DNA of 64,000 nucleotides, taken from an uncultured Acidobacteriota bacterium. GTDB lineage: Bacteria; Acidobacteriota; Thermoanaerobaculia; UBA5066; DATFVB01. The stretch spans positions 79,058-143,057 of the forward strand of contig CAWEYG010000001.1 of NCBI GenBank assembly GCA_963813155.1, read 5' to 3'. Below are positions 1-29,816 of the stretch, one piece after another. Every line of letters begins with the position of its first letter. Position 1 is the first letter of the stretch. A program made the position numbers and the translations under genes. The notes under the pieces are model-generated. The model saw only the letters and a program-made list of their open reading frames with translations. It was not told where the DNA came from and ran no database searches.

Positions 1-685
1 AATCTCGTGCGCGAGCCCCGCCGCGACCTCGCCGAGCTCGCGGAATTTCCGATCGTCCGCTCGCGCGAGCTCGAGCTTCCGATTCCGCTCGAGAAGCCTC
101 CAGAGAAACACGTCCGTCGCCGCCAGGGCCGCGAGGCGCGATGAGCCCGCAGAAAGCGGTCTTCCTCACGAGGTCGGATCGCAGGGACTTCAGCCGCGCT
201 TCGACGGCGTCCTTGGACACCCCGACGTGGACGAATCCGATGTTCTCGATCGGGACCGCGATGTCGTAGTCGCGCGAGGTCTCCGTCGATCGGCGGCCGG
301 TGCCGTCGGGCAGATCCAGCGAAGGGGTCGGACGCTCGTCGAAGAACTCCCGCCTTCCCTCCGCGCGCCCCTCGTAGAGGCGGCGGCCGTCGCGGTCCGT
401 GACGGCGATGTACTCCACCGTTCGCTTCTCCTGCAGCACCGAATGCAGGTAGAGCTCCGTTTCCTTCGTTCTTTCGCTCACCCGCAGCGCGGCGGACGGC
501 GACGCGAGCTTCCGGGCGATCGACTCGGCGTCCGCCCGCGACTCCTCGAGCGCCGACGCGACGAACCGGGACGAAAGCGAGCGAAAAATGAGAATGGAAA
601 AGGCGGCGAGAACGAGCAGGAAGAGCAGGCCCGACGCGATCGAGACGGCGAGAAGGCGACGTTCGAAACGGCGGGCCGCGTCCAC
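1..685 (-). CDS. sensor histidine kinase, 5' part (runs off window); apparent +1 frameshift near 136-139
   Basis: Reverse-strand translation gives TM helix, about 150-aa periplasmic region, second TM helix (AFCGLIA.LAALAATDVFLW), then an H-box ADDRKFRELGEVAAGLAHEI at the window edge. The two halves lie in different frames, joined at the run CGCGCC. The GTG start at about 685 lies 9 nt after the upstream FHA regulator stop. Confidence 0.6.
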   Translation of the reverse strand, partial: MDAARRFERRLLAVSIASGLLFLLVLAAFSILIFRSLSSRFVASALEESRADAESIARKLASPSAALRVSERTKETELYLHSVLQEKRTVEYIAVTDRDGRRLYEGRAEGRREFFDERPTPSLDLPDGTGRRSTETSRDYDIAVPIENIGFVHVGVSKDAVEARLKSLRSDLVRKTAFCGLIAPRGPGGDGRVSLEASRAESEARARASGRSEIPRARRGRGGARARD

Positions 686-694
686 GCGATTATT

Positions 695-2611
695 CTATTC
701 CGCCGCGCCCTTCTTCCTTTCGCGTCGCAGGTAACGATAGTCGCGAATCCCGAATTCCGACATCTTCGCGATCAGCGAGCCCCGGGAGATGTTGAGCAGC
801 TCCGCGCCTTTGCTCTGATTGCCTTCCACTTTCCTCATCACGCGATCGATGACCTGGCGCTCGACCGATTCCACGATTTTCTTCAAGTCGTCGACCTCGT
901 GCAGCACCAGCCCGGCTTCCGCCTCGCGAAACTTCGGATCCAGCCGGTCGAGACCGACGGGTTCGGAAGGCGTGCAGACGGCCGCGAGACGCACGACCTC
1001 GTTTTCCAGCTCCCGCGCGTTTCCGGGATAGCGATAGGTGAGAAGCGCGTTCAGAGCGTCCGGTTCGAGCGGACCGAGTCCGGAGGGGGCATGGCGGCGG
1101 ACGAAATGCTCGAACAGCGCCGGGATGTCCTCGCGCCGCTCGGCAAGCGAGGGCAGACGCACCGTGAGCACGGCGAGGCGAAAATAGAGGTCGCGGCGAA
1201 AGCTGCCAGTCTCGACCGCGGGCAGGAGGTTCGTCGAGGTCGTGGCGATCCATCGGATCCGGCTGCGGTCGCCTTCGCCCGAGAGTCCGCCCATCCACTC
1301 GAGCAGCCGGGCTTGCGACGCCTGCGGCAAATAGCCGACTTCGCTGAGGACGAGCGTTCCCCCGGTCGCTTCGTCCACCTTCCCGGAGCGGCGGCGATCG
1401 CCCCGGCCCGCCGGAGCGGGGCGCCCGAAGAGCTCTTCCTCAAGGCGGCTCATGGAAGAACAGTCCACGACGACGTAGGGTCCCGAGGCCAAGTCGCTCT
1501 GCCGGTGCAGCGCGATCGCGATCAGGTCCTTCCCGGTGCCGACCTCGCCCGAAACCAGAACCGGCGCGCGCGACCTCGCGATTCGCGGAAGATCCAGAAC
1601 GAGCCGGCGCATCCCGTCGGACGCGGCGACGATCTCCGTTTCCCGCAGCGGTTCGGGCACGGAAACGGCGTCCGGCGGCGTTCCCGGCTCGGCGTCGGGC
1701 GACGAGATCAACGTCCACGCGAGGTCCGCCATCTGGGCGGCCTCTTCCACGAAGGCGGCGGCCCGTGCCGGAAAACGCTGGCTCTCGCGAGCGGCGAGCA
1801 CGACCCTTCGCTCGCCGACGCGGGCGGGCGAGGAGAAAAGAACGAGGGGACGGTCGCCGTCGAGGTGAATGGGGCCCATGGCCCTTTTCAAGTCGTCCGC
1901 GATGCGAACGGGGAAATCGAAGGGCTCCCGGAACGTGCTCGCCAGCTCCCGGAAATTTCCGGCCGTGTCGAACAGGCCGACGGCCCACTCGTCCGGGCCG
2001 AGCTGTTCCGAGAGAAAGCGGCCGAGCTCGCGGGCCGAGGCCGAAGAGTCCGACTCGCGCTTCAGCCGCCGAAAGAGGTCCAGCCGCAGGCCGCGATATT
2101 CCGCCTCGGACAGCCCCGCGGCTGCCGCCGGCACGGGCGAGGGAGGCGGCGAAACGTGGCCGGGCGTCGCCGAGTCGTCCGCCGCATCGACGCCGGCCAC
2201 GGGCGTGACGCGGCCCGAGGGCCTGCCGTTGAGCAACGTGATCGCCGCCTCCCCGATCGTGATCCGGTCTCCGATTCCGAGCGGCCCTCCCAGGGTCTCC
2301 TTCCCGTTCACGAAGACCGGCTCGACGCCCCGAAAAACGTCCAGAAAATAGCCGCCGTCTTTTTCGACAATTCTCGCGTGCCGGCCCGACACTCCCCGGG
2401 CCCGGACCACCACCTGGTTCCCGGAAGATGCTCCAATTGTGACCAGAGGTCCCGTAACGCGACGGACTTCGGCATCGCCCGATTTCTTACGAACTTCCAA
2501 ACTCAGCATTCGCTCGACTCTCCAGTAGTTTCTCGTGCGGTTGATCTTGAGCCGCGCCCCGGTGCTCGTTTTTTGAGTCTCGAACATAGAACAAAGATCG
2601 CCCGAGATCAA
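695..2611 (-). CDS. FHA-domain sigma54-activator-like transcriptional regulator (FHA + central domain + AAA+ + Fis-type HTH) with degenerate GAFTGA and Walker B
   Basis: N-terminal FHA motifs (TIGASSGNQVVV..GVSGRHARI). Walker A GEVGTGKD. ELFG followed by RPAPAG where GAFTGA is expected. GGTLVLSEV where Walker B DE is expected. C-terminal HTH LLNISRGSLIAKMSEFGI. Start is uncertain (TTG at about 2611 or ATG at about 2587). Confidence 0.75.
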   Translation of the reverse strand: MISGDLCSMFETQKTSTGARLKINRTRNYWRVERMLSLEVRKKSGDAEVRRVTGPLVTIGASSGNQVVVRARGVSGRHARIVEKDGGYFLDVFRGVEPVFVNGKETLGGPLGIGDRITIGEAAITLLNGRPSGRVTPVAGVDAADDSATPGHVSPPPSPVPAAAAGLSEAEYRGLRLDLFRRLKRESDSSASARELGRFLSEQLGPDEWAVGLFDTAGNFRELASTFREPFDFPVRIADDLKRAMGPIHLDGDRPLVLFSSPARVGERRVVLAARESQRFPARAAAFVEEAAQMADLAWTLISSPDAEPGTPPDAVSVPEPLRETEIVAASDGMRRLVLDLPRIARSRAPVLVSGEVGTGKDLIAIALHRQSDLASGPYVVVDCSSMSRLEEELFGRPAPAGRGDRRRSGKVDEATGGTLVLSEVGYLPQASQARLLEWMGGLSGEGDRSRIRWIATTSTNLLPAVETGSFRRDLYFRLAVLTVRLPSLAERREDIPALFEHFVRRHAPSGLGPLEPDALNALLTYRYPGNARELENEVVRLAAVCTPSEPVGLDRLDPKFREAEAGLVLHEVDDLKKIVESVERQVIDRVMRKVEGNQSKGAELLNISRGSLIAKMSEFGIRDYRYLRRERKKGAAE

Positions 2612-2725
2612 CGGATCGGCGGCGAATTGGCGAGAATCCCAAAAAACACCGGAACTTGTGTGCGGCGCGGCCGGACCCCCAACATATCGTGGATTTCACC
2701 GAAACTGTCTGGTACTCTCCCGGGA

Positions 2726-5700
2726 ATGTTTCACCTCGAGAGCCTGAGCATTTCCGGCTTCAAGTCGTTCTCGGAATCTGCGCAACTCGCGTTTCCCGGG
2801 GCCATCACGGCGGTCATCGGGCCGAACGGTTGCGGCAAATCGAACATCTGCGACGCGGTCGCCTGGGCGCTGGGCGAGCAGAGCGCGCGCATCCTCCGGG
2901 GCGAAAAGATGGATGACGTCATCTTCAACGGATCGGGCAAGCGCCGGCCGCTGGGAATGGCGGAGGTCACCCTCACACTGCGCTCGAGCAACGGCGATTT
3001 TCCGGAAAACGAAGGCCGCGTCGCGATCGGCCGCCGCGTCTATCGCGAGGGCGAGGGCGAGTACTACCTGAACGGCAAGAAGGTGAGGCTCAAGGACGTC
3101 CAGGACGTGCTGTTCGGCACGGGGCTCGGCGTCCGCGCGTACTCGATCATCGAGCAGGGAAAGATCGACCAGGTGCTCTCCTCGAAGCCGCTCGATCGCC
3201 GCAAGCTCATCGAGGAGGCGGCGGGAATCACGAAGTACAAGATCAAGAAACGGTCGGCCGAGCTCAAGCTCGAAGAAACCCGGGCGAACCTGACCCGCCT
3301 CTCCGACATCCTCGCCGAAGTCGAGCGCTCCTGCGCCTCGCTGAAACGCCAGGCCTCCAAGGCGGAGCGGTACACGGAGAAGACGGCGGCCCTTCGAGCG
3401 AAGCGAACCCAGATCGCGCGGCTTCGCTACGACGCCCTCGAGCTCGCGCTCCGCCAGGCCGAGGCCGCGCTCGGCGCTTCGCGAGACGAGGAAGCCGGCC
3501 GATCGGCGGACCTCTCGGCCTGCGAAGCGGCCGAGGCCGAATCCCGGCGACTGGCCCTGGACGGGCGCGCGCGGAGAGACGCGGCTCGCGAGGAGCTTTC
3601 CGCCCGGACTTCGGCCGTCGAGCGCGACGACTCGGCGATCGAGGCCGCCCGCCGGGCGGAAGTGGAGATCGCCGCGAGGCAGCACGCGCTGACCCGCGAT
3701 TCGGACGAGCTCGCCCGGGAAACGGAGCTCCGCCGCGAGGCCCGAGCGGCGGTCGAAGGAACCTGCGCGCGGCGGAAGGCCGAGCTCGACGGCGCCCTGG
3801 CGACGAAGAGCCGGGCGACGGACACCAAGAGACTCACGGAAGAGCGGATCGGCCGGATCGAGGAAGGCCTGGAGGCCGTTCGCCTCGCGATCGCGTCGCT
3901 CGCGGGCGATCGAGCCCGGGCGCGCAACGAACGGCACGAGACCGACCTCGGGCTGGAGCGGATCGCGGCGGCGAGGTCCCGAATTGCGGAAGCGAACGGA
4001 CGGTTCGAGCTCTCGATCGCGGCGATCGAAATCGAGGTTGCGGAGTCGGAAGCGGAGAACGGGCGTCGCCGGGACCAGGCGGCCGAGTGCGCCGCCGCCG
4101 CCCAGGGGAACGAGACCCGGCTTCAGGACGCCGTCCGGGAAGTCTCCGACCTCGAGATCGAGCGCGGAGGCTTGCGAGAGGGCCTGGCCGCCGAAGAACA
4201 GCGGCGGCGCGCGCTCGAAGAGATGAAGGGTTCGCGCGAGAAGGGCGCCCAGCGCGTCCTCGACCACCTCCACGCGCGGGGCGAGAGCTCCGACGGCACG
4301 GTCGCGTCGAAGCTGGTGCCGAAAGCGGGATGGGAGGGCATTCTCGACCGGCTCGCCTCGGAAGAGCTGGATGCCGTCGTCGTCGAGGGCGAGGGGTTCG
4401 AAGCCGCTTCCCGCCTGCGGGAGGCGGGCGTGGGGGGAACGGTCCTGGGATCCGGATCGCAGACGCCGTCGGAACCGACCGCGTGGGAGGGCGTTCTGGA
4501 GAATTTCCGCGATCTCTCCCCCGCGCTCGTTTCGATCCTTCCGCCGGTTCTCTTCGTGGAAGACGCTTCCTCGGCCCGCGACGCGGCACGCGCGCACCCC
4601 GGCATGCTCGTCGCGAGCCGGTCGGGAGAGATCGTCCGCGGCGACCTGTGGCGCGTTCCGGGATCGCAGCCCGAAGCCGCGGGCCCTCTCTCGCTGCGGC
4701 GCGAGATCGAAGAACGCCGGGCGAGCATCGAAGGCCTCGGAAGCCGGCTCGCGGAATGCGAGACCCGCCTCGCGGCCGCCCGCGCGAGACGGGCCGAATA
4801 CGAAGCCCGGGCGGTCCCGCTCGCCAACGAGCGCCGCGAGGCCGAAACGGCCGCCGCCGCGCACGCGGCGCGTCTCGCCGAGCGCACCGCCGAACGCGAG
4901 CGCCAGCGCCGCGAGCACGAAACCCTTCGAGCGGAAGACGAAATGCTCGAGCAGGACGTCGAGCGCCTGTCCTCGACCCGGGCGGAAACGCTCGCCCGCG
5001 AAGCCGACCTCGAGCGCGCCGAGCTCGAACAGCGCGGCGCCTCCGAAACGCACCTGCGGGAGCTCGGAGAGCTGCGTCCCCGCCTCGCGACGGAGCTGGA
5101 GAGCGAAGCCGGTGCGCGCGAGACCCTGGAAGGAGCGCGGGAAAGGCTCGCCTCCGCCGAGCGCGAGCTCTTTGCGCTCTCTTCCCAGGACGAGGCGGCC
5201 ACGAAAAAAAAGGCCGAGTGGGAAAAGGAGACCGGCGCCCTGCGGGAACGCCTCGCCACGGCAACCCGCGAGGCGGAGGAGGCCCGGCGCCGCCGCGACG
5301 AGAACGTGATCGCCCGGGACACGGCGGCGCGAGCCTTCGAAGGCCTCTCGGCGGAATCGGAGAATCGCGCGCTCGAAGCGGCGGAAACCGAAGATGCCGT
5401 CAAGCGGGTCCGCGTCCTCTTCGACGCCGCTCGCCAGAAGCGGTTCGACGCCGAAATTCTCCATGCCCGTGTCGCGTCCGATCTCGCGCATGCCGAGGAA
5501 GACGCCCGGCGCGAGTTCGGCGTCCCGCCTTCCGAGCTTCCGGCGGCGGAGGCCCTGTCCGACGAGGAGCGCGAGCGGATCGAGCAGGAAGCGCGGGAGC
5601 TCGCCGACCAGATCGAGCGGATGGGGCCCGTCAACGTCCTCGCCTTCGAGGAGTACAAGGAGCAGAGCGAGCGCTTCGAATTCCTGACGGCGCAGCGCCT

Positions 5701-6214
5701 CGACATCGACACCGCGATCTCGTCGCTCCTCGACACGATCCGAAAGATCAACGCGACGTCCTCGGAACGCTTCGCGGAGGCGTTCGCTGCGATCAACAAG
5801 AATTTCTCGGAGCTCTTCCAGCGGCTGTTCCGGGGCGGGTCGGCGGAGATGAAGCTTCTCGACGAGAACGACCTTCTCGACTCCGGAATCGAGATCACCG
5901 CGCAGCCGCCCGGAAAGCGCAACCAGTCGATCCTCCTCCTGTCGGGCGGCGAAAAGGCGATGACCGCGATCGCCCTCCTGATGGGGATTTTCCGCTACAA
6001 GCCGTCGCCCTTCTGCATCCTCGATGAAGTCGACGCGCCGCTCGACGACGCGAACATCGACCGGTTCGCGCAGCTCATCCGCGAAATGAGCGAGGAGACG
6101 CAATTCATCGCGATCACGCACAACAAGCGAACGATGGAAGCGGCCGACGCGCTCTACGGCGTGACGATGGAAGAGCCGGGCTGCTCGAAGATCGTGTCCG
6201 TCAAGTTCGATTGA
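2726..6214 (+). CDS. smc: chromosome segregation protein SMC (1162 aa)
   Basis: N-terminus MFHLESLSISGFKSF with Walker A GPNGCGKSN. Long coiled coils and hinge. C-terminal LSGGEKAMTAIALLMGIF...ILDEVDAPLDDAN...ITHNKRTME...VSVKFD. The upstream part of the 1995-aa track ORF is antisense read-through. Confidence 0.95.
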   Translation: MFHLESLSISGFKSFSESAQLAFPGAITAVIGPNGCGKSNICDAVAWALGEQSARILRGEKMDDVIFNGSGKRRPLGMAEVTLTLRSSNGDFPENEGRVAIGRRVYREGEGEYYLNGKKVRLKDVQDVLFGTGLGVRAYSIIEQGKIDQVLSSKPLDRRKLIEEAAGITKYKIKKRSAELKLEETRANLTRLSDILAEVERSCASLKRQASKAERYTEKTAALRAKRTQIARLRYDALELALRQAEAALGASRDEEAGRSADLSACEAAEAESRRLALDGRARRDAAREELSARTSAVERDDSAIEAARRAEVEIAARQHALTRDSDELARETELRREARAAVEGTCARRKAELDGALATKSRATDTKRLTEERIGRIEEGLEAVRLAIASLAGDRARARNERHETDLGLERIAAARSRIAEANGRFELSIAAIEIEVAESEAENGRRRDQAAECAAAAQGNETRLQDAVREVSDLEIERGGLREGLAAEEQRRRALEEMKGSREKGAQRVLDHLHARGESSDGTVASKLVPKAGWEGILDRLASEELDAVVVEGEGFEAASRLREAGVGGTVLGSGSQTPSEPTAWEGVLENFRDLSPALVSILPPVLFVEDASSARDAARAHPGMLVASRSGEIVRGDLWRVPGSQPEAAGPLSLRREIEERRASIEGLGSRLAECETRLAAARARRAEYEARAVPLANERREAETAAAAHAARLAERTAERERQRREHETLRAEDEMLEQDVERLSSTRAETLAREADLERAELEQRGASETHLRELGELRPRLATELESEAGARETLEGARERLASAERELFALSSQDEAATKKKAEWEKETGALRERLATATREAEEARRRRDENVIARDTAARAFEGLSAESENRALEAAETEDAVKRVRVLFDAARQKRFDAEILHARVASDLAHAEEDARREFGVPPSELPAAEALSDEERERIEQEARELADQIERMGPVNVLAFEEYKEQSERFEFLTAQRLDIDTAISSLLDTIRKINATSSERFAEAFAAINKNFSELFQRLFRGGSAEMKLLDENDLLDSGIEITAQPPGKRNQSILLLSGGEKAMTAIALLMGIFRYKPSPFCILDEVDAPLDDANIDRFAQLIREMSEETQFIAITHNKRTMEAADALYGVTMEEPGCSKIVSVKFD

Positions 6215-6666: not shown

Positions 6667-7934
<1,268 letters not shown>

Positions 7935-7938
<4 letters not shown>

Positions 7939-8651
7939 GACTCTTTCCTCCGGAACCGCAAGATGGCGCACACTTCTTCGCCCTCCTGCCGCAGTTCGAG
8001 CTCCGCGCCGCTGCCCTGCGCGGCGCGTCGCGCTCGAAGAAGACCGAACCCTCGTCCCGGGCTCGCCTCTCTCTTCGCGACGCCGAAGAGATGCTCGGGG
8101 TCGCCCGCCGGGATCCGGCCGGACGACCGGCATGTCAGAACGATTTCCGAAGACCGATCCTCGATGGACCAGCGGATCGACCCGGGAGCGGAAGAATGCT
8201 CGACCGCGTTTCGGGTGAGCTCGCCGACGGCGAGCCCGACATCTCGCGGCGACGCGAACCAGCGCGGGTCCGGCCCGGGAGCCGGGAGCTCGAGCAGAAG
8301 GCCGCGGGCCATCGCGTCGGCGCGAAGGGGCTCGGAGGCTTCCGCGATCGCCGCGGCCAGCGAAAACTCGGCCGGCTCCTCGATCTCCTCGTGCGAAGCT
8401 TCGGCGATCAAATCGAGCATTCCCGCCGCGCTCTCGAGCGATTGCTGGCACGTCCGGAGGTTCTCGACAACGGCGGCCAAATCGAATCCGCCGGGCCTCT
8501 GCATACGCCGGAGAGCGACCTCCAGGTGCAGGTTCGCCCCCGAGAGAGGGGTAGAAATCTCGTGCCGGAAGCGCCGCAGGAAGCTCTTCAAGGCTTCTCC
8601 CCGGTCTCGCTCGTACAGCGTTTCGCGCGGGATCCGCCCGGTCTCCTGCAT
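7935..8651 (-). CDS. cytoplasmic histidine kinase (HisKA + HATPase, no sensor domain)
   Basis: H-box FLRRFRHEISTPL. GxGxG ATP-lid motifs near the C-terminus. No TM segment. In an operon with the downstream NtrC-type regulator. Confidence 0.8.
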
Positions 8652-8698: not shown

Positions 8699-9448
8699 AT
8701 GTCGCGCATTCTCCTGATCGACGATTCCACGGAAACGGATGCCGTGATCCGGGGGTTCCTTCCTCCCGACGGGCCGCAACTCGAGACCGCCCGGGAAGCC
8801 GGTGAGGGGCTGGACGTCGCGAGGTCGATCCAGCCCGAACTGATCTTCATCAACCTCGCCCTGCCCGGAATTCCCTCGTGGCGCGCGATACGGGAAATCA
8901 AGCGGGACCTCTTCCTCTCGGCGGTCCCGGTGGTCGCGCTCTCGAGCGCCACCCAGGGCGGCGAGCGCGAGCGGGCGCTCGCGGCGGGGTGCGACGATTT
9001 CCTCGCCAAGCCGATTTCCCGCGAAGCCGTCGAGCGCGTTCTCTCGACCCACCTCGCGCCCGCGGACCTGGAACGGACCCGGCCCCTCGCGATCTCGACG
9101 CCGGCGGTTCGCGGCGTCCTTCGCGCTCGAATCCTGCTCGCGTCGGCCGATGCCGACTTTCTCCACCTCTACTCGCCCGCGCTGCAATTCGCCCGCTACC
9201 GGATCGAAACGGTCGCCTCCGGGCACGAGCTGTTCGAGAAGGTCGAGTCGACGCGGCCGCACATCGTGATCCTCGACTCGCGGCTTTCCGACCGCACGGG
9301 CGCCGAGGCGGCGGCCCAGATCAAGGCTCGCCAGAGAGATCCCTTCCTGCCGATCCTCCTGCTGACCGACGGCCGGCCGGAATCCGACGCGGGCTGGAAC
9401 GCGCCGGCCGACGACTTCCTGGCCGGCCGTTTCCGGAGCCGGAACTGA
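8699..9448 (+). CDS. tandem-receiver protein (REC1 has Asn at the phosphoacceptor position, REC2 canonical); probably the N-terminal part of a hybrid kinase cut by a 1-nt deletion at about 9423-9427
   Basis: REC1 MSRILLIDD...IFINLALPG (N where D is expected). REC2 HIVILDSRLSD...PADDFLAGRFRSRN stop. The REC alpha5 motif continues in the adjacent frame as RPFPEPELRFRVRKLLLL. Confidence 0.7.
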   Translation: MSRILLIDDSTETDAVIRGFLPPDGPQLETAREAGEGLDVARSIQPELIFINLALPGIPSWRAIREIKRDLFLSAVPVVALSSATQGGERERALAAGCDDFLAKPISREAVERVLSTHLAPADLERTRPLAISTPAVRGVLRARILLASADADFLHLYSPALQFARYRIETVASGHELFEKVESTRPHIVILDSRLSDRTGAEAAAQIKARQRDPFLPILLLTDGRPESDAGWNAPADDFLAGRFRSRN

Positions 9449-9486
9449 GGTTTCGCGTCCGCAAGCTCCTTCTGCTCTCGAGCGCG

Positions 9487-11064
9487 ATGCAAAGCGAACG
9501 GGACCGATCGCGGCAGCTCGCGACGGTCGCCCGCCACATGACGCGGGGACTGCTGCTCGTCGACGGCGAAGGGCGAATCACCCTGATGAACCGCCCCTGC
9601 GCCGAAATCCTCGGGAGCAAGGCCGATCCGAGAGGCCGCGCCGCGCGCCATCTGCTTCGCTCGGCCGGACTTCGCGACTCGGAAGGCCGCGAGCTGGGCG
9701 CGGACTTCAACCCCGTCGCGAAACTCCGCAAACTTCGCGTTCCGTCCCTGCGCGAGATCTACACGGTGGAGACGGAACCCGGCCAGAGAACGAAGATCGA
9801 GATCGTCTCGACGGCGATCGCCGACAAGGGCAAGCGCGCGCGAGGCGCCGTCCTGCTCCTTCGACGAATCGGCGAGGACGCGGAAGCGCAACGCGAGCTC
9901 CACGAGGCGTACGAAAGGCTGATGGAAGTCGATCAGCTCAAGTCCCAATTCCTGTCGACCGTCTCGCACGAGCTCCGCACGCCGCTCAACACGATCATCC
10001 TGCTGTCGCACGTTCTCACCCGCGAGCCCGGCGAGCGACTCCCGACCGGGAAGAAGGAACACGATCTCCAGGTGATCCAGCAGAGCGCGACGACCTTGCT
10101 CCACATGATCAACAACCTGCTCGACCTCGCGAGAATCGAGGCCGGACAGGCCGAGGTCAGGCCGGAGAGCCTCGCGATCGAGCCGTTCCTGAAGGAGACC
10201 CTGGAAATCCTCTCCCCCCAGGCGGAAAGCCGGGGCCTGCGGTTGCGCCTCGCGGCCTCTCCCGCGCTTCCCGAGCGGGCCGCGTTCGACCGCGAAAAGG
10301 TCCGGCAGATCCTCCTGAACCTGATTTCCAACGCAATCAAGTTCACGCCCCGCGGCTCGGTCGAGCTCGCCGTGGCGCCGGCGGGAGCGGGCAACGTCCT
10401 GTCGTTTTCCGTCCGCGACGAGGGGCTCGGGATCCCGCCGGACAAGCTGTCTTTCATCTTCGAGCCGTTCCGCCGGATTTCGCCCGAAGAAGGAGCGACC
10501 GCCGGCTCGGGCCTGGGTCTCTCGATCGTGAAGGAGCTCGTCCGGCTTATGGGCGGAGAGATTTCGGTCGAAAGCCAGCCGGGCAGCGGCTCGACGTTTC
10601 GCGTCCTGCTGCCGATCCTGCCCGCCGCCGAAGACCCTCACGACTCGACCCGCCCGGCGCGCGCCCCCCGGTCGCGTACCCGGGTCCTGGTTGTGGAAGA
10701 CGACGAAAGCTCGCGTTACGCGCTGACCTCCGTGCTCGCGCTCGAGGGGTACGGGGCCGATTCCGCGCGGAACGGGAAAGAGGCCTTTTCGAAGGCGCAA
10801 TCCGGCGGTTACGACGCGATCTTCATGGACATCAGCCTTCCGGACGAGGACGGAACATCGGTCATCGAGAATCTCCGGCGGCGTCCGGAGACGCGGGCCG
10901 TTCCCATCATCGCCCTGACGGGGAAGACCTCCGACGCCGACCGGCGGAAGATCGAGGCCTCCGGCGCCTCCGCCTACCTTTCCAAACCGGTCAACGTCAA
11001 ACGCCTGCTGAAGACCCTTTCCCAGCTCCTGGACGCTCCCCGCGCAGCCGCGAAGCAGGGTTAA
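9487..11064 (+). CDS. PAS-sensor hybrid histidine kinase (PAS + HisKA + HATPase + C-terminal REC)
   Basis: PAS region LLLVDGEGRITLMNRPCAEILG. H-box STVSHELRTPLN. N-box LLNLISNAIKFT. G-boxes DEGLGIP and GSGLGLSIV. C-terminal receiver RVLVVEDDE...IFMDISLPDEDG...KP. Likely continuous with 8699..9448 once the frameshift is corrected. Confidence 0.85.
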   Translation: MQSERDRSRQLATVARHMTRGLLLVDGEGRITLMNRPCAEILGSKADPRGRAARHLLRSAGLRDSEGRELGADFNPVAKLRKLRVPSLREIYTVETEPGQRTKIEIVSTAIADKGKRARGAVLLLRRIGEDAEAQRELHEAYERLMEVDQLKSQFLSTVSHELRTPLNTIILLSHVLTREPGERLPTGKKEHDLQVIQQSATTLLHMINNLLDLARIEAGQAEVRPESLAIEPFLKETLEILSPQAESRGLRLRLAASPALPERAAFDREKVRQILLNLISNAIKFTPRGSVELAVAPAGAGNVLSFSVRDEGLGIPPDKLSFIFEPFRRISPEEGATAGSGLGLSIVKELVRLMGGEISVESQPGSGSTFRVLLPILPAAEDPHDSTRPARAPRSRTRVLVVEDDESSRYALTSVLALEGYGADSARNGKEAFSKAQSGGYDAIFMDISLPDEDGTSVIENLRRRPETRAVPIIALTGKTSDADRRKIEASGASAYLSKPVNVKRLLKTLSQLLDAPRAAAKQG

Positions 11065-26465: not shown

Positions 26466-26840
26466 ATGGTTCAGCCTCGCGAATTCCGGTATTCCGACAT
26501 CCCCTCTGACCCGCGCGAACTTGCGAAGGACTGCGAGATCTCGTTCTTTCGCGCGTCCGGGCCGGGCGGGCAGCATCGAAACAAGACGGAAACGGCTGTC
26601 CGGGTCGTGCACCTGCCCACCGGCGTCATCGCGGCCGCGGTCGAGGAACGCAGCCAGTCTCGCAACCGCGAGCGGGCATTCGAGCGCCTTCGGGAGAAGC
26701 TCATCCGAAAATTGAAGCCGCGAAAGCCGCGCCGGGAAACGAAAGTCCCGCGGTCGGCGAAGGAAAAACGGCTCGAAGCGAAGATCCGGCGGAGCCGGAC
26801 GAAAGAATTGAGGTCTATTCCCCGAGCTTCTCTCGATTGA
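26466..26840 (+). CDS. arfB: alternative ribosome-rescue factor ArfB (peptidyl-tRNA hydrolase, GGQ motif)
   Basis: GPGGQHRNKTETAVRVVHLPTG followed by a basic C-terminal tail (KLKPRKPRRETKVPRSAKEKRLEAKIRRSR). Confidence 0.85.
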   Translation: MVQPREFRYSDIPSDPRELAKDCEISFFRASGPGGQHRNKTETAVRVVHLPTGVIAAAVEERSQSRNRERAFERLREKLIRKLKPRKPRRETKVPRSAKEKRLEAKIRRSRTKELRSIPRASLD

Positions 26841-28176
26841 GCCCGTAGTGCTCGAGCTTCTTGTAGAGGTTCGACCGCGGCGTTTGAATCGTCTCGGCCG
26901 TCCGGGAAACGTTCCAGTTGTTCTCGCGGAGTTTTGCGAGAAGAAATTCGCGCTCCGTGTATTCCTTGAAGTCCGCGAGCGTCGACATGCGCGACGCCTG
27001 CCCGGCGAGCTCCCTCGGCGAAAACTGGGATTCGGAAGGAATTTCCGCGGCCGTGACGGGATCGGCCTCCGTCATGATCAGAACGCGCTCCACGAGATTC
27101 CGGAGCTCGCGCACATTTCCCGGCCAGGATCGCCCGGCCAGGGCGTCGAGCGCGCTCTTGTGGAACGTACGCCGGCGAACGCCGTTGCGCTCCGCGTACA
27201 CGGCGGCGAAATGCTCGACGAGCGGCACCGCGTCCTCCGGCCGTTCGCGCAGGGGGGCGATGTGCAGCGGCACGACGTTCAGGCGAAAATAGAGATCTTC
27301 CCGAAACGATCCCTTTCGGATCTCGTCAACGAGGTTCTTGTTCGTGGCCGCGATCACGCGGACCTTCACTTTCTGAGTCTTCGATTGGCCGACGGGCTCG
27401 ACCTCGCCCTCCTGCAGCACCCTCAGGACTTTCGCCTGGGCGCGAGCCGACATGTCGCCGACCTCGTCCAGAAAGATCGTCCCTCCGTCGGCCTCGACGA
27501 ACTTCCCGATCTGCTTGCGGACCGCTCCCGTGAACGACCCCTTCTCGTGGCCGAACAACTCGGATTCGATGAGCTCCTCGGGAATCGCCGCGCAGTTCAC
27601 CGTCACGAACGGCCCCTGGGACAGCCGCGAGAGCCGCTGGACCTGGCGCGCGAGGAGCTCCTTGCCGGTTCCCGACTCCCCCGTGACGAGAACGGTCGCG
27701 TCGGACGGGGCCGCCCGCGCGACCTGCTCGTTGAGCCTGCGCACGGAGTCGCTCGCCCCGACGAAAGAATCTTCGATCTCGACTCGGCGCTTGAGCCGGA
27801 CGTTCTCGCGGGCCAGATGGTCGCGCGACACCGCGTTCCGAAGAGAGACGAGCAGGCGCTCGCGCTGAAGGGGCTTCTCGAGGAAATCCACCGCGCCTCG
27901 CTTCGTGCACTCGACAGCCGTCGCGATATCTCCGTGCCCGGAGATCATCAGAACCGGTGGAGGATTCTCGAGCCGCTGGATCTCGTCGAGGGCCTCCATC
28001 CCGTCCTTTCCGGGCATCTTGATGTCGAGCAGCACCGCGTCGGGCCGCCGGGCGTCGATTTCCGAAAGCCCGGAGACGGCGTCCGGAGCGGACGCCGTCT
28101 CGTAGCCGTCGTATTCCAGGATCATCTTGATCGCCTGACGCACCGACGCGTCGTCGTCGACGATGAGAACCCGCAT
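26815..28176 (-). CDS. sigma54-dependent response regulator, NtrC/ZraR family (REC + AAA+ + Fis HTH)
   Basis: MRVLIVDDD...LLDIKMPGKDG. GESGTGKE. ESELFGHEKGSFTGA. GGTIFLDEV. C-terminal HTH TAETIQTPRSNLYKKL. The 3' end overlaps arfB convergently by 26 nt. Confidence 0.9.
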   Translation of the reverse strand: MRVLIVDDDASVRQAIKMILEYDGYETASAPDAVSGLSEIDARRPDAVLLDIKMPGKDGMEALDEIQRLENPPPVLMISGHGDIATAVECTKRGAVDFLEKPLQRERLLVSLRNAVSRDHLARENVRLKRRVEIEDSFVGASDSVRRLNEQVARAAPSDATVLVTGESGTGKELLARQVQRLSRLSQGPFVTVNCAAIPEELIESELFGHEKGSFTGAVRKQIGKFVEADGGTIFLDEVGDMSARAQAKVLRVLQEGEVEPVGQSKTQKVKVRVIAATNKNLVDEIRKGSFREDLYFRLNVVPLHIAPLRERPEDAVPLVEHFAAVYAERNGVRRRTFHKSALDALAGRSWPGNVRELRNLVERVLIMTEADPVTAAEIPSESQFSPRELAGQASRMSTLADFKEYTEREFLLAKLRENNWNVSRTAETIQTPRSNLYKKLEHYGLNREKLGE

Positions 28177-28196: not shown

Positions 28197-29744
28197 CTAC
28201 TCGCCGACTTTGACGATCGCGAAGAACGAGAACGGACGCTGGCCGAAGCGCCGCACGTAAAAACGCAGGTAATCGCCCTTCTTCGCGTCGCGGACGACCC
28301 GCGAGAGCTCTTCGGCGGAAGCGACCTTGTGGCCGTTGACTTCGGTGATCACGTCGCCTTCCGCCAGCCCGGCATCGTTCGCCGCCGACACTTCGGAGAC
28401 TCCCGTGACGAGGACGCCCGCGACGCTCGGCTCGATCCGGTAGTACTGGCGCCCCTGCGGCGTCAGGTCCTGGACGGAGAGGCCGATTTTTTCCTTCGCG
28501 CCGCCCTCGTTCTCGGGAGCAGCCGTGTCGTTGGATGCCTGGTCGCCCCGGCGCTCCCCGAGCTCGACGGTGAGGTCCTGCATCCTCCCTCCGCGGTTGA
28601 CGGCGAGGCGCACCCGGGCGCCCGGAGGCCTGCCCGACACGTACGAGATGAGGTCCTGCGTCGTGACGACCTCGCGGTCGTCGACCTTCAGGATGACGTC
28701 GCCGTGCTGAACGCCCGCCTTGTCGGCCGGCTGGCCCGGCTCGACCGACTCCACGAGAGCGCCGTTCATGTCCTTGAGGCCGAACGCTTTCATGTTGTCT
28801 TCGTCGAGGTTGCGGATGTTCACTCCCAGGAAGCCGCGCGTGACCTTGCCCTTCGTCTTGAGCTGGTCGAGGATCGACCGGGCCGTGTTGATCGGCACCG
28901 CGAACCCGATGTTCTGGGCCGGACGGTAAATCGCGGTGTTGATGCCGATGACTTCGCCCTCGAGATCGATGAGCGGCCCGCCCGAGTTGCCGAAGTTGAT
29001 CGCGGCGTCGGTCTGGATGAAATTTTCGAACGAGTTCGTGTTCGGATCCAGCGTCAGGTTGTGCCGGCCTTTGGCCGAGACGACGCCGACGGTCACCGTC
29101 TTGTCGAATGCCCAGGGATCGCCGATCGCCATCACCCAGTCGCCGACGCGAATCTTGTCGGAATCCCCGAGCGAAATCGGCGTGAGGCGCTCCTTCGCGT
29201 CGATCTTGATGAGCGCGATGTCGGTCGCGGGATCGGTGCCCACGACCTTCGCCCGATAGGTGTGCTGGTCGCCGACTTTGACCTCGATTTTCTGACCGCT
29301 CTCGACGACGTGGTTGTTCGTCAGGATGTACCCGTCCTGCGAAATGATGAAGCCGGACCCTCCGGCCTCTTCCTTGTGCTCCTGTTGCTGGTCCTGGCCC
29401 TGCCCCGGACCGCCCTGGCCCGGATGCGGAAATCCGAAGAAGAATTCGAACGGATCCTGTCCGTCTCCTCCTCCAAACGGGTTCTGGCCCCCGGAACGGC
29501 GGCGAGGCCCCTTCACGATGTCGGTCGAAGTGATCGAAACGACCGACGGCAGGGCTTCGGCGGCCACGTCGGAAAAAGATGGCAGGTTCCCGGCCGAGGT
29601 CGCCCGTGTCGGCGCGCTGTGCGGCGACTTCTGAGCCAGCGTCTCCGGGGTCCAGTTCGTCGAACTGGCCAGCACGACTCCGAAAATGATCGCCCCCGCG
29701 ATGAGGGCAAAAAAGGAGAGTTGTCTTTTCGCACTCGCGTTCAT
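28197..29744 (-). CDS. degP: Do/DegP/HtrA-family periplasmic serine endoprotease (trypsin domain + 2 PDZ)
   Basis: Catalytic triad context TNNHVV, DIALIK, GNSGGPL. Two PDZ domains. Signal/TM at the N-terminus. ATG 29744 with GGGGG RBS. The track TTG at 29768 is probably not the start. Confidence 0.9.
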   Translation of the reverse strand: MNASAKRQLSFFALIAGAIIFGVVLASSTNWTPETLAQKSPHSAPTRATSAGNLPSFSDVAAEALPSVVSITSTDIVKGPRRRSGGQNPFGGGDGQDPFEFFFGFPHPGQGGPGQGQDQQQEHKEEAGGSGFIISQDGYILTNNHVVESGQKIEVKVGDQHTYRAKVVGTDPATDIALIKIDAKERLTPISLGDSDKIRVGDWVMAIGDPWAFDKTVTVGVVSAKGRHNLTLDPNTNSFENFIQTDAAINFGNSGGPLIDLEGEVIGINTAIYRPAQNIGFAVPINTARSILDQLKTKGKVTRGFLGVNIRNLDEDNMKAFGLKDMNGALVESVEPGQPADKAGVQHGDVILKVDDREVVTTQDLISYVSGRPPGARVRLAVNRGGRMQDLTVELGERRGDQASNDTAAPENEGGAKEKIGLSVQDLTPQGRQYYRIEPSVAGVLVTGVSEVSAANDAGLAEGDVITEVNGHKVASAEELSRVVRDAKKGDYLRFYVRRFGQRPFSFFAIVKVGE

Positions 29745-29816
29745 CAAGTTTTTCCCCCTACCTTTCAACGGCGCTCAATTCTAGCCCAGCGACTCCGCCG
29801 GCTCGCGCTCTGGAGT

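Follow-up and report, generated by a model that had tools for sequence, protein, structure and literature searches.

A receiver-less FHA-like, GAF, AAA+ and Fis-type regulator of Thermoanaerobaculia as a probable sigma54-independent atypical enhancer-binding protein

The regulator gene studied here lies near the beginning of a 64,000-nucleotide stretch (64 kb, hereafter the window) of contig CAWEYG010000001.1 from an uncultured Acidobacteriota bacterium, and it raises the question of whether a protein that carries the AAA+ domain of the sigma54-dependent bacterial enhancer-binding proteins (bEBPs, or EBPs) still works as one of them. In annotation pipelines this regulator and related proteins go by the names of 'sigma 54-interacting transcriptional regulator' or 'NtrC family response regulator'. 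Both names are misleading, since the protein has neither a GAFTGA motif nor a receiver (REC) domain. Judged from its sequence, the regulator is probably a sigma54-independent 'atypical EBP', whose AAA+ domain would be kept for nucleotide binding and oligomerisation and not for sigma54 remodelling. An earlier note on this DNA had reached a similar view, namely that the protein probably cannot remodel sigma54 and may act as a DNA-binding regulator or a scaffold. This is still the best reading, given the family-wide loss of motifs and the existence of positional orthologues without any AAA+ domain.

The gene and its domains are laid out as follows:

695..2509, minus strand: regulator coding sequence, 604 aa, ATG at 2509 and TAG at 695-697; FHA-like domain, GAF domain, degenerate AAA+ domain, lid and HTH_8
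2222..2509, minus strand: FHA-like domain, residues 1-96, with IGA...VSGRHA...VNG in place of IGR...SxxH...NG
1700..2110, minus strand: GAF domain, approximately residues 134-270, undetected by Pfam
950..1633, minus strand: AAA+ domain of the sigma54-interaction type with its lid, residues 293-520 (Pfam Sigma54_activat)
1526..1549, minus strand: intact Walker A, GEVGTGKD, with a Lys that is invariant in 102/102 family members
1397..1423, minus strand: RPAPAGRGD right after ELFG, in place of the H/E-KGAFTGA L1 loop (from the alignment)
1340..1354, minus strand: Walker B LVLSE, with the Asp replaced by Ser389 and Glu390 kept (from the alignment)
752..874, minus strand: Fis-type HTH_8 DNA-binding domain (Pfam HTH_8, 36.5 bits), almost invariant family-wide

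The start of the gene is almost certainly the ATG at 2509. The frame 695-2611 (638 aa, TTG start), which had previously been taken as the gene, is the maximal open reading frame (ORF) and is overextended, as the relatives begin at Met1 of the 604-aa form. GGAGAG lies 9 nt upstream of the ATG, all relatives read MLS(L/F)EVRK from residue 1 onward, and N-terminal conservation in the alignment starts at Met1. The closest relative found by protein search (P0001) is 97% identical, is also 604 aa long and has the same N-terminus. The nearest relatives all come from Thermoanaerobaculia/Acidobacteriota metagenome-assembled genomes. The GC content is about 67%, and a 1995-aa open frame on the plus strand (window 227-6214), which joins the antisense strand of the regulator to smc, is no gene and arises from the mechanical listing of ORFs in DNA of high GC content.

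In a Pfam scan FHA, Sigma54_activat, AAA_lid_14 and HTH_8 all fall in one frame, in line with the architecture of FHA, AAA+ and Fis-type helix-turn-helix (HTH) domains described before. The 'central region' named in that description is indeed present, but its identity as a GAF domain had been overlooked; a fold test returned the GAF fold for it. According to the family alignment this GAF domain lacks conserved Cys/His residues for metal or cofactor binding. The same Pfam scan gives no Response_reg (REC) domain up to E = 1, the N-terminus being made up of the FHA-like and GAF domains, and the earlier expectation of a two-component output is therefore not borne out for a regulator without a receiver domain. 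An AlphaFold2 model of the full-length protein has a confidence score (pLDDT) of 80. The best match of the regulator to a solved structure in Foldseek is NtrX (5m7n), a GAFTGA-less EBP, and Brucella NtrX is also the second-best match by sequence, after ZraR as the best sequence match in the PDB. AtoC and NtrC are the best NCBIfam matches of the part comprising the AAA+ and HTH domains, with scores far under the family cut-offs (e.g. 187 vs 714 bits for AtoC).

To which degree is the AAA+ domain altered? The Sigma54_activat match (PF00158) scores 107.5 bits (E 7e-31, cut-off 20.2), while two canonical bEBPs of the same window, serving as internal control, reach 230-234 bits, so that the regulator stays below half of their score. 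We aligned the domain to ZraR (1ojl), Aquifex NtrC1 (4l4u), Brucella NtrX (5m7n) and one canonical bEBP of the window. At the L1 position, where ZraR, NtrC1 and the canonical bEBPs of the window carry (E/H)KGAFTGA, the regulator reads RPAPAGRGD after ELFG; the alignment to ZraR and NtrC1 thus confirms the loss of GAFTGA proposed earlier. For Walker B the picture is different. Its context, GGTLVLSEV, is non-canonical as stated before, but it is the Mg-coordinating Asp that is lost and the catalytic Glu that is kept, the opposite of the former claim. The equivalent of N64, the Asn partner of the Glu in PspF, is Asp in the regulator. In addition, 5-7 residues are missing from the L2/pre-sensor-I region relative to ZraR, NtrC1 and NtrX; tier 2 of the family (see below) as well as P0024 and P0025 have a full L2. 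The two arginine fingers (FRRDLYFRL) are kept, as is the sensor II Arg (PGNARELEN).

GAFTGA is absent from either alternative frame of the regulator gene, and 25/25 orthologues have the same degenerate motifs. A shift of the motifs by an indel, against which the earlier note had asked for a check, is ruled out as the cause of their loss by these two findings. We also considered a FleQ-type site for cyclic di-GMP in the AAA+ domain and dropped the idea, because the Arg-Asn which we take to follow Walker A in the FleQ structure would be Ile-Ala here (KDLIAIALH).

The protein search resolves the family into three tiers: 25 full-length orthologues of about 600 aa with 59-97% identity (T1), about 75 proteins of about 640 aa with 40-50% identity (T2) and 17 proteins of about 355-370 aa without AAA+ (T3). 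Column counts for the AAA+ domain cover the 102 AAA+-bearing members and those for the FHA-like domain 119 relatives. In 102/102 members the Walker A Lys, the Walker B Glu, the two arginine fingers and the sensor II Arg do not vary, and none of the 102 has GAFTGA. At the position of the Walker B Asp we find N16/S5/K3/A2 in T1 and E76 in T2. The replacement of L1 is rich in Pro, Ala, Gly and Arg, and variable in length and sequence among the orthologues.

Selection was assessed from the ratio of non-synonymous to synonymous substitution rates (dN/dS, Nei-Gojobori) between the window gene and its orthologues in L001, L009, L008 and L003. The values are lowest for the FHA-like domain (0-0.02) and the HTH (0.01-0.04), followed by the lid (0.03-0.13), AAA+ (0.09-0.17), GAF (0.14-0.24) and the linkers (0.3-0.9); within the AAA+ domain the L1 replacement has the highest value. 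As the motif changes are common to 25/25 orthologues from independent metagenome assemblies and dN/dS of the AAA+ domain is about 0.1, they represent neither an assembly artefact nor decay. The AAA+ domain is thus altered, under purifying selection, and not decaying. Taken together with the residues that are invariant in 102/102 members, the low dN/dS suggests that the AAA+ domain is functional and not a sigma54 motor. Some relatives from long-read metagenomes have broken ORFs: the regulator of L014 (L014:10001-11814) is cut at 486 aa, and smc of L001 (L001:6296-9786) is split into pieces of 121 and 987 aa. Both are consistent with indel errors of those assemblies.

Further relatives place this state of the AAA+ domain in a wider range. 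Two outgroup FHA-domain EBPs (P0183 and P0232) have an FHA domain with GR and SRxH, and an AAA+ domain with GK-E, a near-GAFTGA motif (GVATGV/GISGA), DE and a full L2. T2 members carry GA in the FHA-like domain and GKT, no GAFTGA, EE and an intact L2 in AAA+; T1, to which the window regulator belongs, has GA, GKD, no GAFTGA, [N/S/K/A]E and a shortened L2. In three relatives of 603-610 aa (T4: P0137, P0139 and P0145) the FHA-like domain has GA or GS, the Walker A Lys is replaced by Arg, Walker B reads hhhhR[G/D] without DE, and neither the arginine fingers nor the sensor II Arg remain. T3 (FHA motif GA) and P0146 (GG) lack AAA+ altogether. In T3 (L007, L065-L087; P0103-P0120; about 350-370 aa) FHA, GAF and HTH_8 are present and the whole AAA+ domain and lid are gone, at the same chromosomal position, with smc upstream and genes for 4HBT, two KS, deaminase, REC-PilZ and SDR proteins downstream. 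As far as sequences can tell, the relatives form a series from a degenerate through a dead to a deleted AAA+ domain.

The GAF domain of T1 is 33-39% identical to that of T3 and 8-18% identical to that of T2. T1 is in this respect nearer to T3 than to T2, which suggests that the loss of AAA+ and kinase in T3 is secondary. HTH and FHA are almost invariant across the whole series. This, together with the dispensability of AAA+ in relatives, points to a conserved core function in FHA, GAF and HTH. A profile of this FHA-GAF-HTH core run against 1.84 billion representatives matched 27 proteins at E <= 1e-30; the core family is thus compact.

Exosortase H (XrtH, TIGR04177, 125-127 bits) and an associated membrane protein directly follow the regulator on the opposite strand in 15/17 T3 loci, the 17 being those whose downstream flank spans 8 kb or more. 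XrtH also occurs in 14/40 T2 loci and in no T1 locus. As a regulated target it was rejected, since it is missing from all loci of close orthologues, the window's own type, and it remains a lead only; a literature search on XrtH gave nothing useful.

The FHA-like domain is the most constrained part of the regulator and must therefore make an important contact. It matches PF00498 with 34.2 bits (cut-off 20.7), aligns to Rv1747 FHA-1 (E 2e-4), and is modelled by AlphaFold2 as a beta-sandwich of about 10 strands. It also matches Yop-YscD_cpl, an FHA-like family. In FHA domains the Arg of the Gly-Arg pair and the signature Ser are direct phosphate ligands, and Rad53 FHA1 and other FHA domains no longer bind phosphopeptides once this Arg is mutated. 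A gap-free alignment to canonical FHA domains sets IGR...VSRRHA against IGA...VSGRHA: the Arg is Ala in 119/119 relatives, and the Ser position is S19/A7 in T1 (window: VSGRHA), Leu in T2 and A/Y in T3. The FHA His and Asn-Gly are invariant. With the Arg and the Ser not kept, canonical reading of phosphothreonine is doubtful. The 64 kb window contains no Hanks-kinase motif, and the 'STK-type FHA input' (Ser/Thr kinase) proposed earlier is doubtful on all three counts.

The regulator gene is flanked by a histidine kinase gene and by smc:

1..685, minus strand: 5' part of a sensor histidine kinase (transmembrane segment TM1, sCache-like periplasmic domain, TM2, start of HisKA), GTG at 685; runs off the window
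2510..2725, unstranded: divergent intergenic region between regulator and smc, with blocks conserved among close orthologues
2726..6214, plus strand: smc, 1162 aa, Pfam SMC_N 227.7 bits, divergent from the regulator

The TAG of the regulator (695-697) is separated by a 9-nt gap from the GTG of the kinase at 685 on the same strand, and the described adjacency to a kinase with a TM-periplasmic-TM-HisKA layout is thereby confirmed. The kinase H-box (AGLAHEI) is visible at the window edge. A full-length orthologue (L002:5745-7058) comprises sCache_3_2, HisKA and HATPase_c, and AtoS and ZraS are the best NCBIfam matches of the kinase. Intact H, N and G1 boxes are kept by 49/49 orthologues, and each of the three family kinases inspected singly has G2 as well. 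Relative to the 97%-identical L002 the window kinase has 1 extra nt near 137-139 (catcgcGcctc vs catcgc-cctc), which shifts the frame inside TM2. This is an indel error of the assembly or else a genuine mutation that inactivates the kinase.

How closely are the two genes linked? In 8/8 T1 loci smc is divergent from the regulator and the kinase lies directly downstream, mostly with a gap of 9 nt. We then surveyed 87 loci from metagenomes and species-representative genomes, and counted those that extend 8 kb or more on the downstream side. An orthologous kinase is found within 7.7 kb in 40/40 AAA+-bearing loci, within 150 nt in 14 of these, and in 0/17 T3 loci with their AAA-less regulators. The co-conservation on which the earlier note had let the pairing depend is thus found in the 8 close loci and in all 40 AAA+-bearing loci. 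Normal phosphotransfer from the kinase to the regulator cannot take place without a REC domain in the latter. A strict rule that AAA+ implies the kinase (40/40 vs 0/17) is undermined by L089, where a kinase that shares 40-44% identity with the core of the family kinase lies 3 kb downstream of the AAA-less regulator P0146; an unrelated kinase of the window is only 27-30% identical to that core. In L093 (P0137, dead AAA+, T4) no kinase lies within 8 kb, and neither kinase nor smc is linked to the regulator in L093 or L088 (P0139), the two loci read.

The smc gene adjoins the regulator in almost all related T1-T3 loci, and its divergent orientation was described correctly before (plus strand at 2726-6214, with the regulator on the minus strand). 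In Pfam, smc of the window and of the close-orthologue loci matches SMC_N and AAA_23 but not SMC_hinge, while the tier 2 locus L006 has a hinge match; the hinge of the window protein may simply be divergent. On the far side of the kinase a protein of about 260-290 aa, which matches no family and has an N-terminus resembling a signal peptide, follows in L001 (L001:13129-13998), L005 (L005:10034-10822), L009 and L014, and not in L003, L004 and L008. In L001 this protein is 289 aa long, and it is not conserved across all orthologue loci.

Signalling genes are densely clustered near the regulator. At 6667-7887 (minus strand) the window encodes a canonical REC-AAA+ EBP without an HTH domain (GSFTGA, DE, 230 bits), preceded by a 238-aa HATPase_c protein at 7935-8651 (minus strand); L001 carries this pair too, beyond smc, the HATPase protein being 64% identical. 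An ORF with two receiver-domain matches at 8699-9448 (plus strand) overlaps an ORF for a hybrid HisKA-HATPase_c-REC kinase at 8878-11064 (plus strand). A second canonical activator, REC-AAA+-HTH_8 with GSFTGA (234 bits), lies at 26815-28176 (minus strand), directly downstream of an HtrA/DegP-like Trypsin_2-PDZ protease gene at 28197-29768 (minus strand).

Searches at the DNA level were largely negative. A scan of the window with the sigma54 promoter consensus gave 10 matches vs 9.7 expected, none of them at the regulator locus, and a sigma70 consensus scan of the locus gave no strong match. An alignment of 9 upstream regions contains a weak TTGATC-N17-TATGTT element upstream of the regulator. 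A DNA site shared across tiers was sought upstream of the regulator by alignment of close orthologues and by 8-mer enrichment in 77 regions, and only tier-specific promoter-like blocks were found.

How might such a protein work? We infer that, independently of sigma54, the Fis-type HTH would bind DNA and regulate ordinary (sigma70/ECF-type) promoters, as repressor or activator, that the AAA+ domain would bind nucleotide and oligomerise by means of its arginine fingers while hydrolysing little or no ATP, and that the co-transcribed membrane histidine kinase would belong to the same circuit without normal phosphotransfer to the regulator. Signals would enter via the N-terminal GAF and FHA-like domains, the latter probably by protein-protein contact without a canonical phosphothreonine pocket. 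The kinase would either serve an unlinked response regulator or contact the regulator directly in a NifL-NifA-like manner. The two canonical bEBPs of the window make it very likely that the organism uses sigma54, and that this paralogue has specifically left that system. Several points weigh against the scheme. With the Walker B Glu and the arginine fingers kept, slow ATP hydrolysis may occur. The strong purifying selection on AAA+ means an important role, which the scheme names only generically, and the role of the kinase is left unexplained. Finally, the cross-tier upstream searches found no target promoter or binding site of the regulator.

The linked kinase allows for a NifL-NifA-like partner switch, in which it would control the GAF-AAA+-HTH protein by direct, nucleotide-dependent contact with AAA+ or GAF and without phosphotransfer. 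The NifA-like core of GAF, AAA+ and HTH without REC would fit, as would the linkage of the kinase in 40/40 AAA+-bearing loci vs 0/17 T3 loci and its absence from the T4 locus with a dead AAA+ domain. The loss in T3 is, however, probably a single evolutionary event, a related kinase is still encoded 3 kb downstream of the AAA-less P0146 in L089, and the retention of all catalytic boxes in the kinase suggests that it phosphorylates some receiver protein, which leaves such a switch unlikely. A broader scheme would see in the living lineages a stepwise conversion of an EBP into a one-component regulator, with an ultra-conserved FHA domain lacking the phosphothreonine pocket and an orphan kinase acting by non-phosphotransfer contact. 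The steps would lead from a canonical AAA+ domain through loss of GAFTGA with GKT/EE, then loss of the Walker B Asp and of L2, to a dead and finally a deleted AAA+ domain. Order of steps and contact mechanism form one joint reading, which is distinctly improbable; if true, it would amount to a new wiring of a histidine kinase to a transcription factor without a receiver domain. Control by a Ser/Thr kinase, where a Hanks-type kinase phosphorylates a partner or the regulator and the FHA domain reads the phosphothreonine and switches DNA binding, has a similarly low probability. It draws on the Pfam FHA match, the invariant His and Asn-Gly, the extreme conservation of the domain and the invariant Arg36 and Arg38 beside the loop, which could stand in as phosphate ligands. 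Yet Ala replaces the GR Arg in 119/119 relatives, and at the signature Ser the tiers differ (S/A/L/Y), while canonical outgroup FHA-EBPs retain GR and SRxH; the match to Yop-YscD_cpl and the lack of a Hanks-kinase motif in the 64 kb window also speak against it.

That the protein is still a sigma54 activator, with a non-canonical L1 loop and hydrolysis via the kept Glu and arginine fingers, would agree with the conserved Walker A, Glu, arginine fingers and sensor II, and with the presence of canonical bEBPs, which makes sigma54 very probable in this organism. But the L1 replacement is variable and has the highest dN/dS of the domain, so that no alternative contact motif is conserved. L2 is truncated, the Walker B Asp position is N/S/K/A, sister lineages have dropped AAA+ altogether, and sigma54-type promoters are not above chance in the window; this makes sigma54 activation very unlikely. 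Still less credible, and indeed extremely improbable, is an assembly artefact or a decaying pseudogene. The 1-nt indel in the neighbouring kinase and the broken ORFs in related assemblies (L014 and smc of L001) may raise this concern, but the regulator frame is uninterrupted and 97% identical to P0001, the motif states are common to all orthologues, and dN/dS is well under 1 in every domain.

Recognition of the regulator as an atypical EBP would prevent wrong predictions of sigma54 regulons in Acidobacteriota. The graded degeneration of AAA+ with conserved core and context could make it possible to separate the needs of oligomerisation and DNA regulation from those of sigma54 remodelling. Two features can be tested now, a catalytically intact histidine kinase conservedly paired with a receiver-less regulator, and an FHA domain under extreme constraint (dN/dS <= 0.02) without the canonical phosphate ligand.

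The earlier note had called the coupling of an FHA input with a two-component output unusual. The combination is less so in view of known systems, since canonical FHA-AAA+-HTH proteins exist (P0183 and P0232) and atypical EBPs are a described class. GAFTGA-less EBPs, some of them with altered Walker B, include TyrR, HupR, HsfA, PhhR, NtrX and VpsR, the latter with N-D in Walker B (PMC6158489), and the NtrC proteins of Caulobacter and Rhodobacter capsulatus belong to the atypical class as well (10.1101/2023.06.06.543975). These proteins work at sigma70 promoters, some without hydrolysis (PMC6158489; 10.1101/2023.06.06.543975). The regulator shares with them a PF00158-type AAA+ domain without GAFTGA, a Walker B altered as in some of them, and a Fis-type HTH. 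Their N-terminus is REC (NtrX, VpsR, HupR, NtrC) or ACT-PAS (TyrR), whereas the regulator has FHA-like and GAF domains, an additionally shortened L2, and a paired histidine kinase despite the lack of a receiver domain.

NifA, NorR, FhlA, Aquifex Nlh1/Nlh2 and Myxococcus PexR, which are GAF-AAA+-HTH proteins, activate sigma54 promoters and still have GAFTGA and DE. The regulator keeps neither motif and, compared with the NifA/NorR/FhlA group, has an extra FHA-like domain and no conserved metal- or cofactor-binding Cys/His in its GAF domain. FHA-domain EBPs have been described in Myxococcus xanthus. In them, too, an FHA domain precedes a sigma54-type AAA+ domain and an HTH, and the canonical examples recovered here (P0183 and P0232) keep GR, SRxH, near-GAFTGA, DE and a full L2, while the regulator family carries GA and lacks both GAFTGA and the Walker B Asp. 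In AtoS/AtoC and ZraS/ZraR, where the best NCBIfam and PDB matches lie, kinase and regulator are also co-transcribed, but there the REC domain defines the phosphotransfer link and here it is missing. What is new in the present family, which is confined to Thermoanaerobaculia, is the N-terminal module of an FHA domain without the phosphothreonine pocket and a cryptic GAF domain, the conserved orphan kinase partner and the natural series of AAA+ loss.

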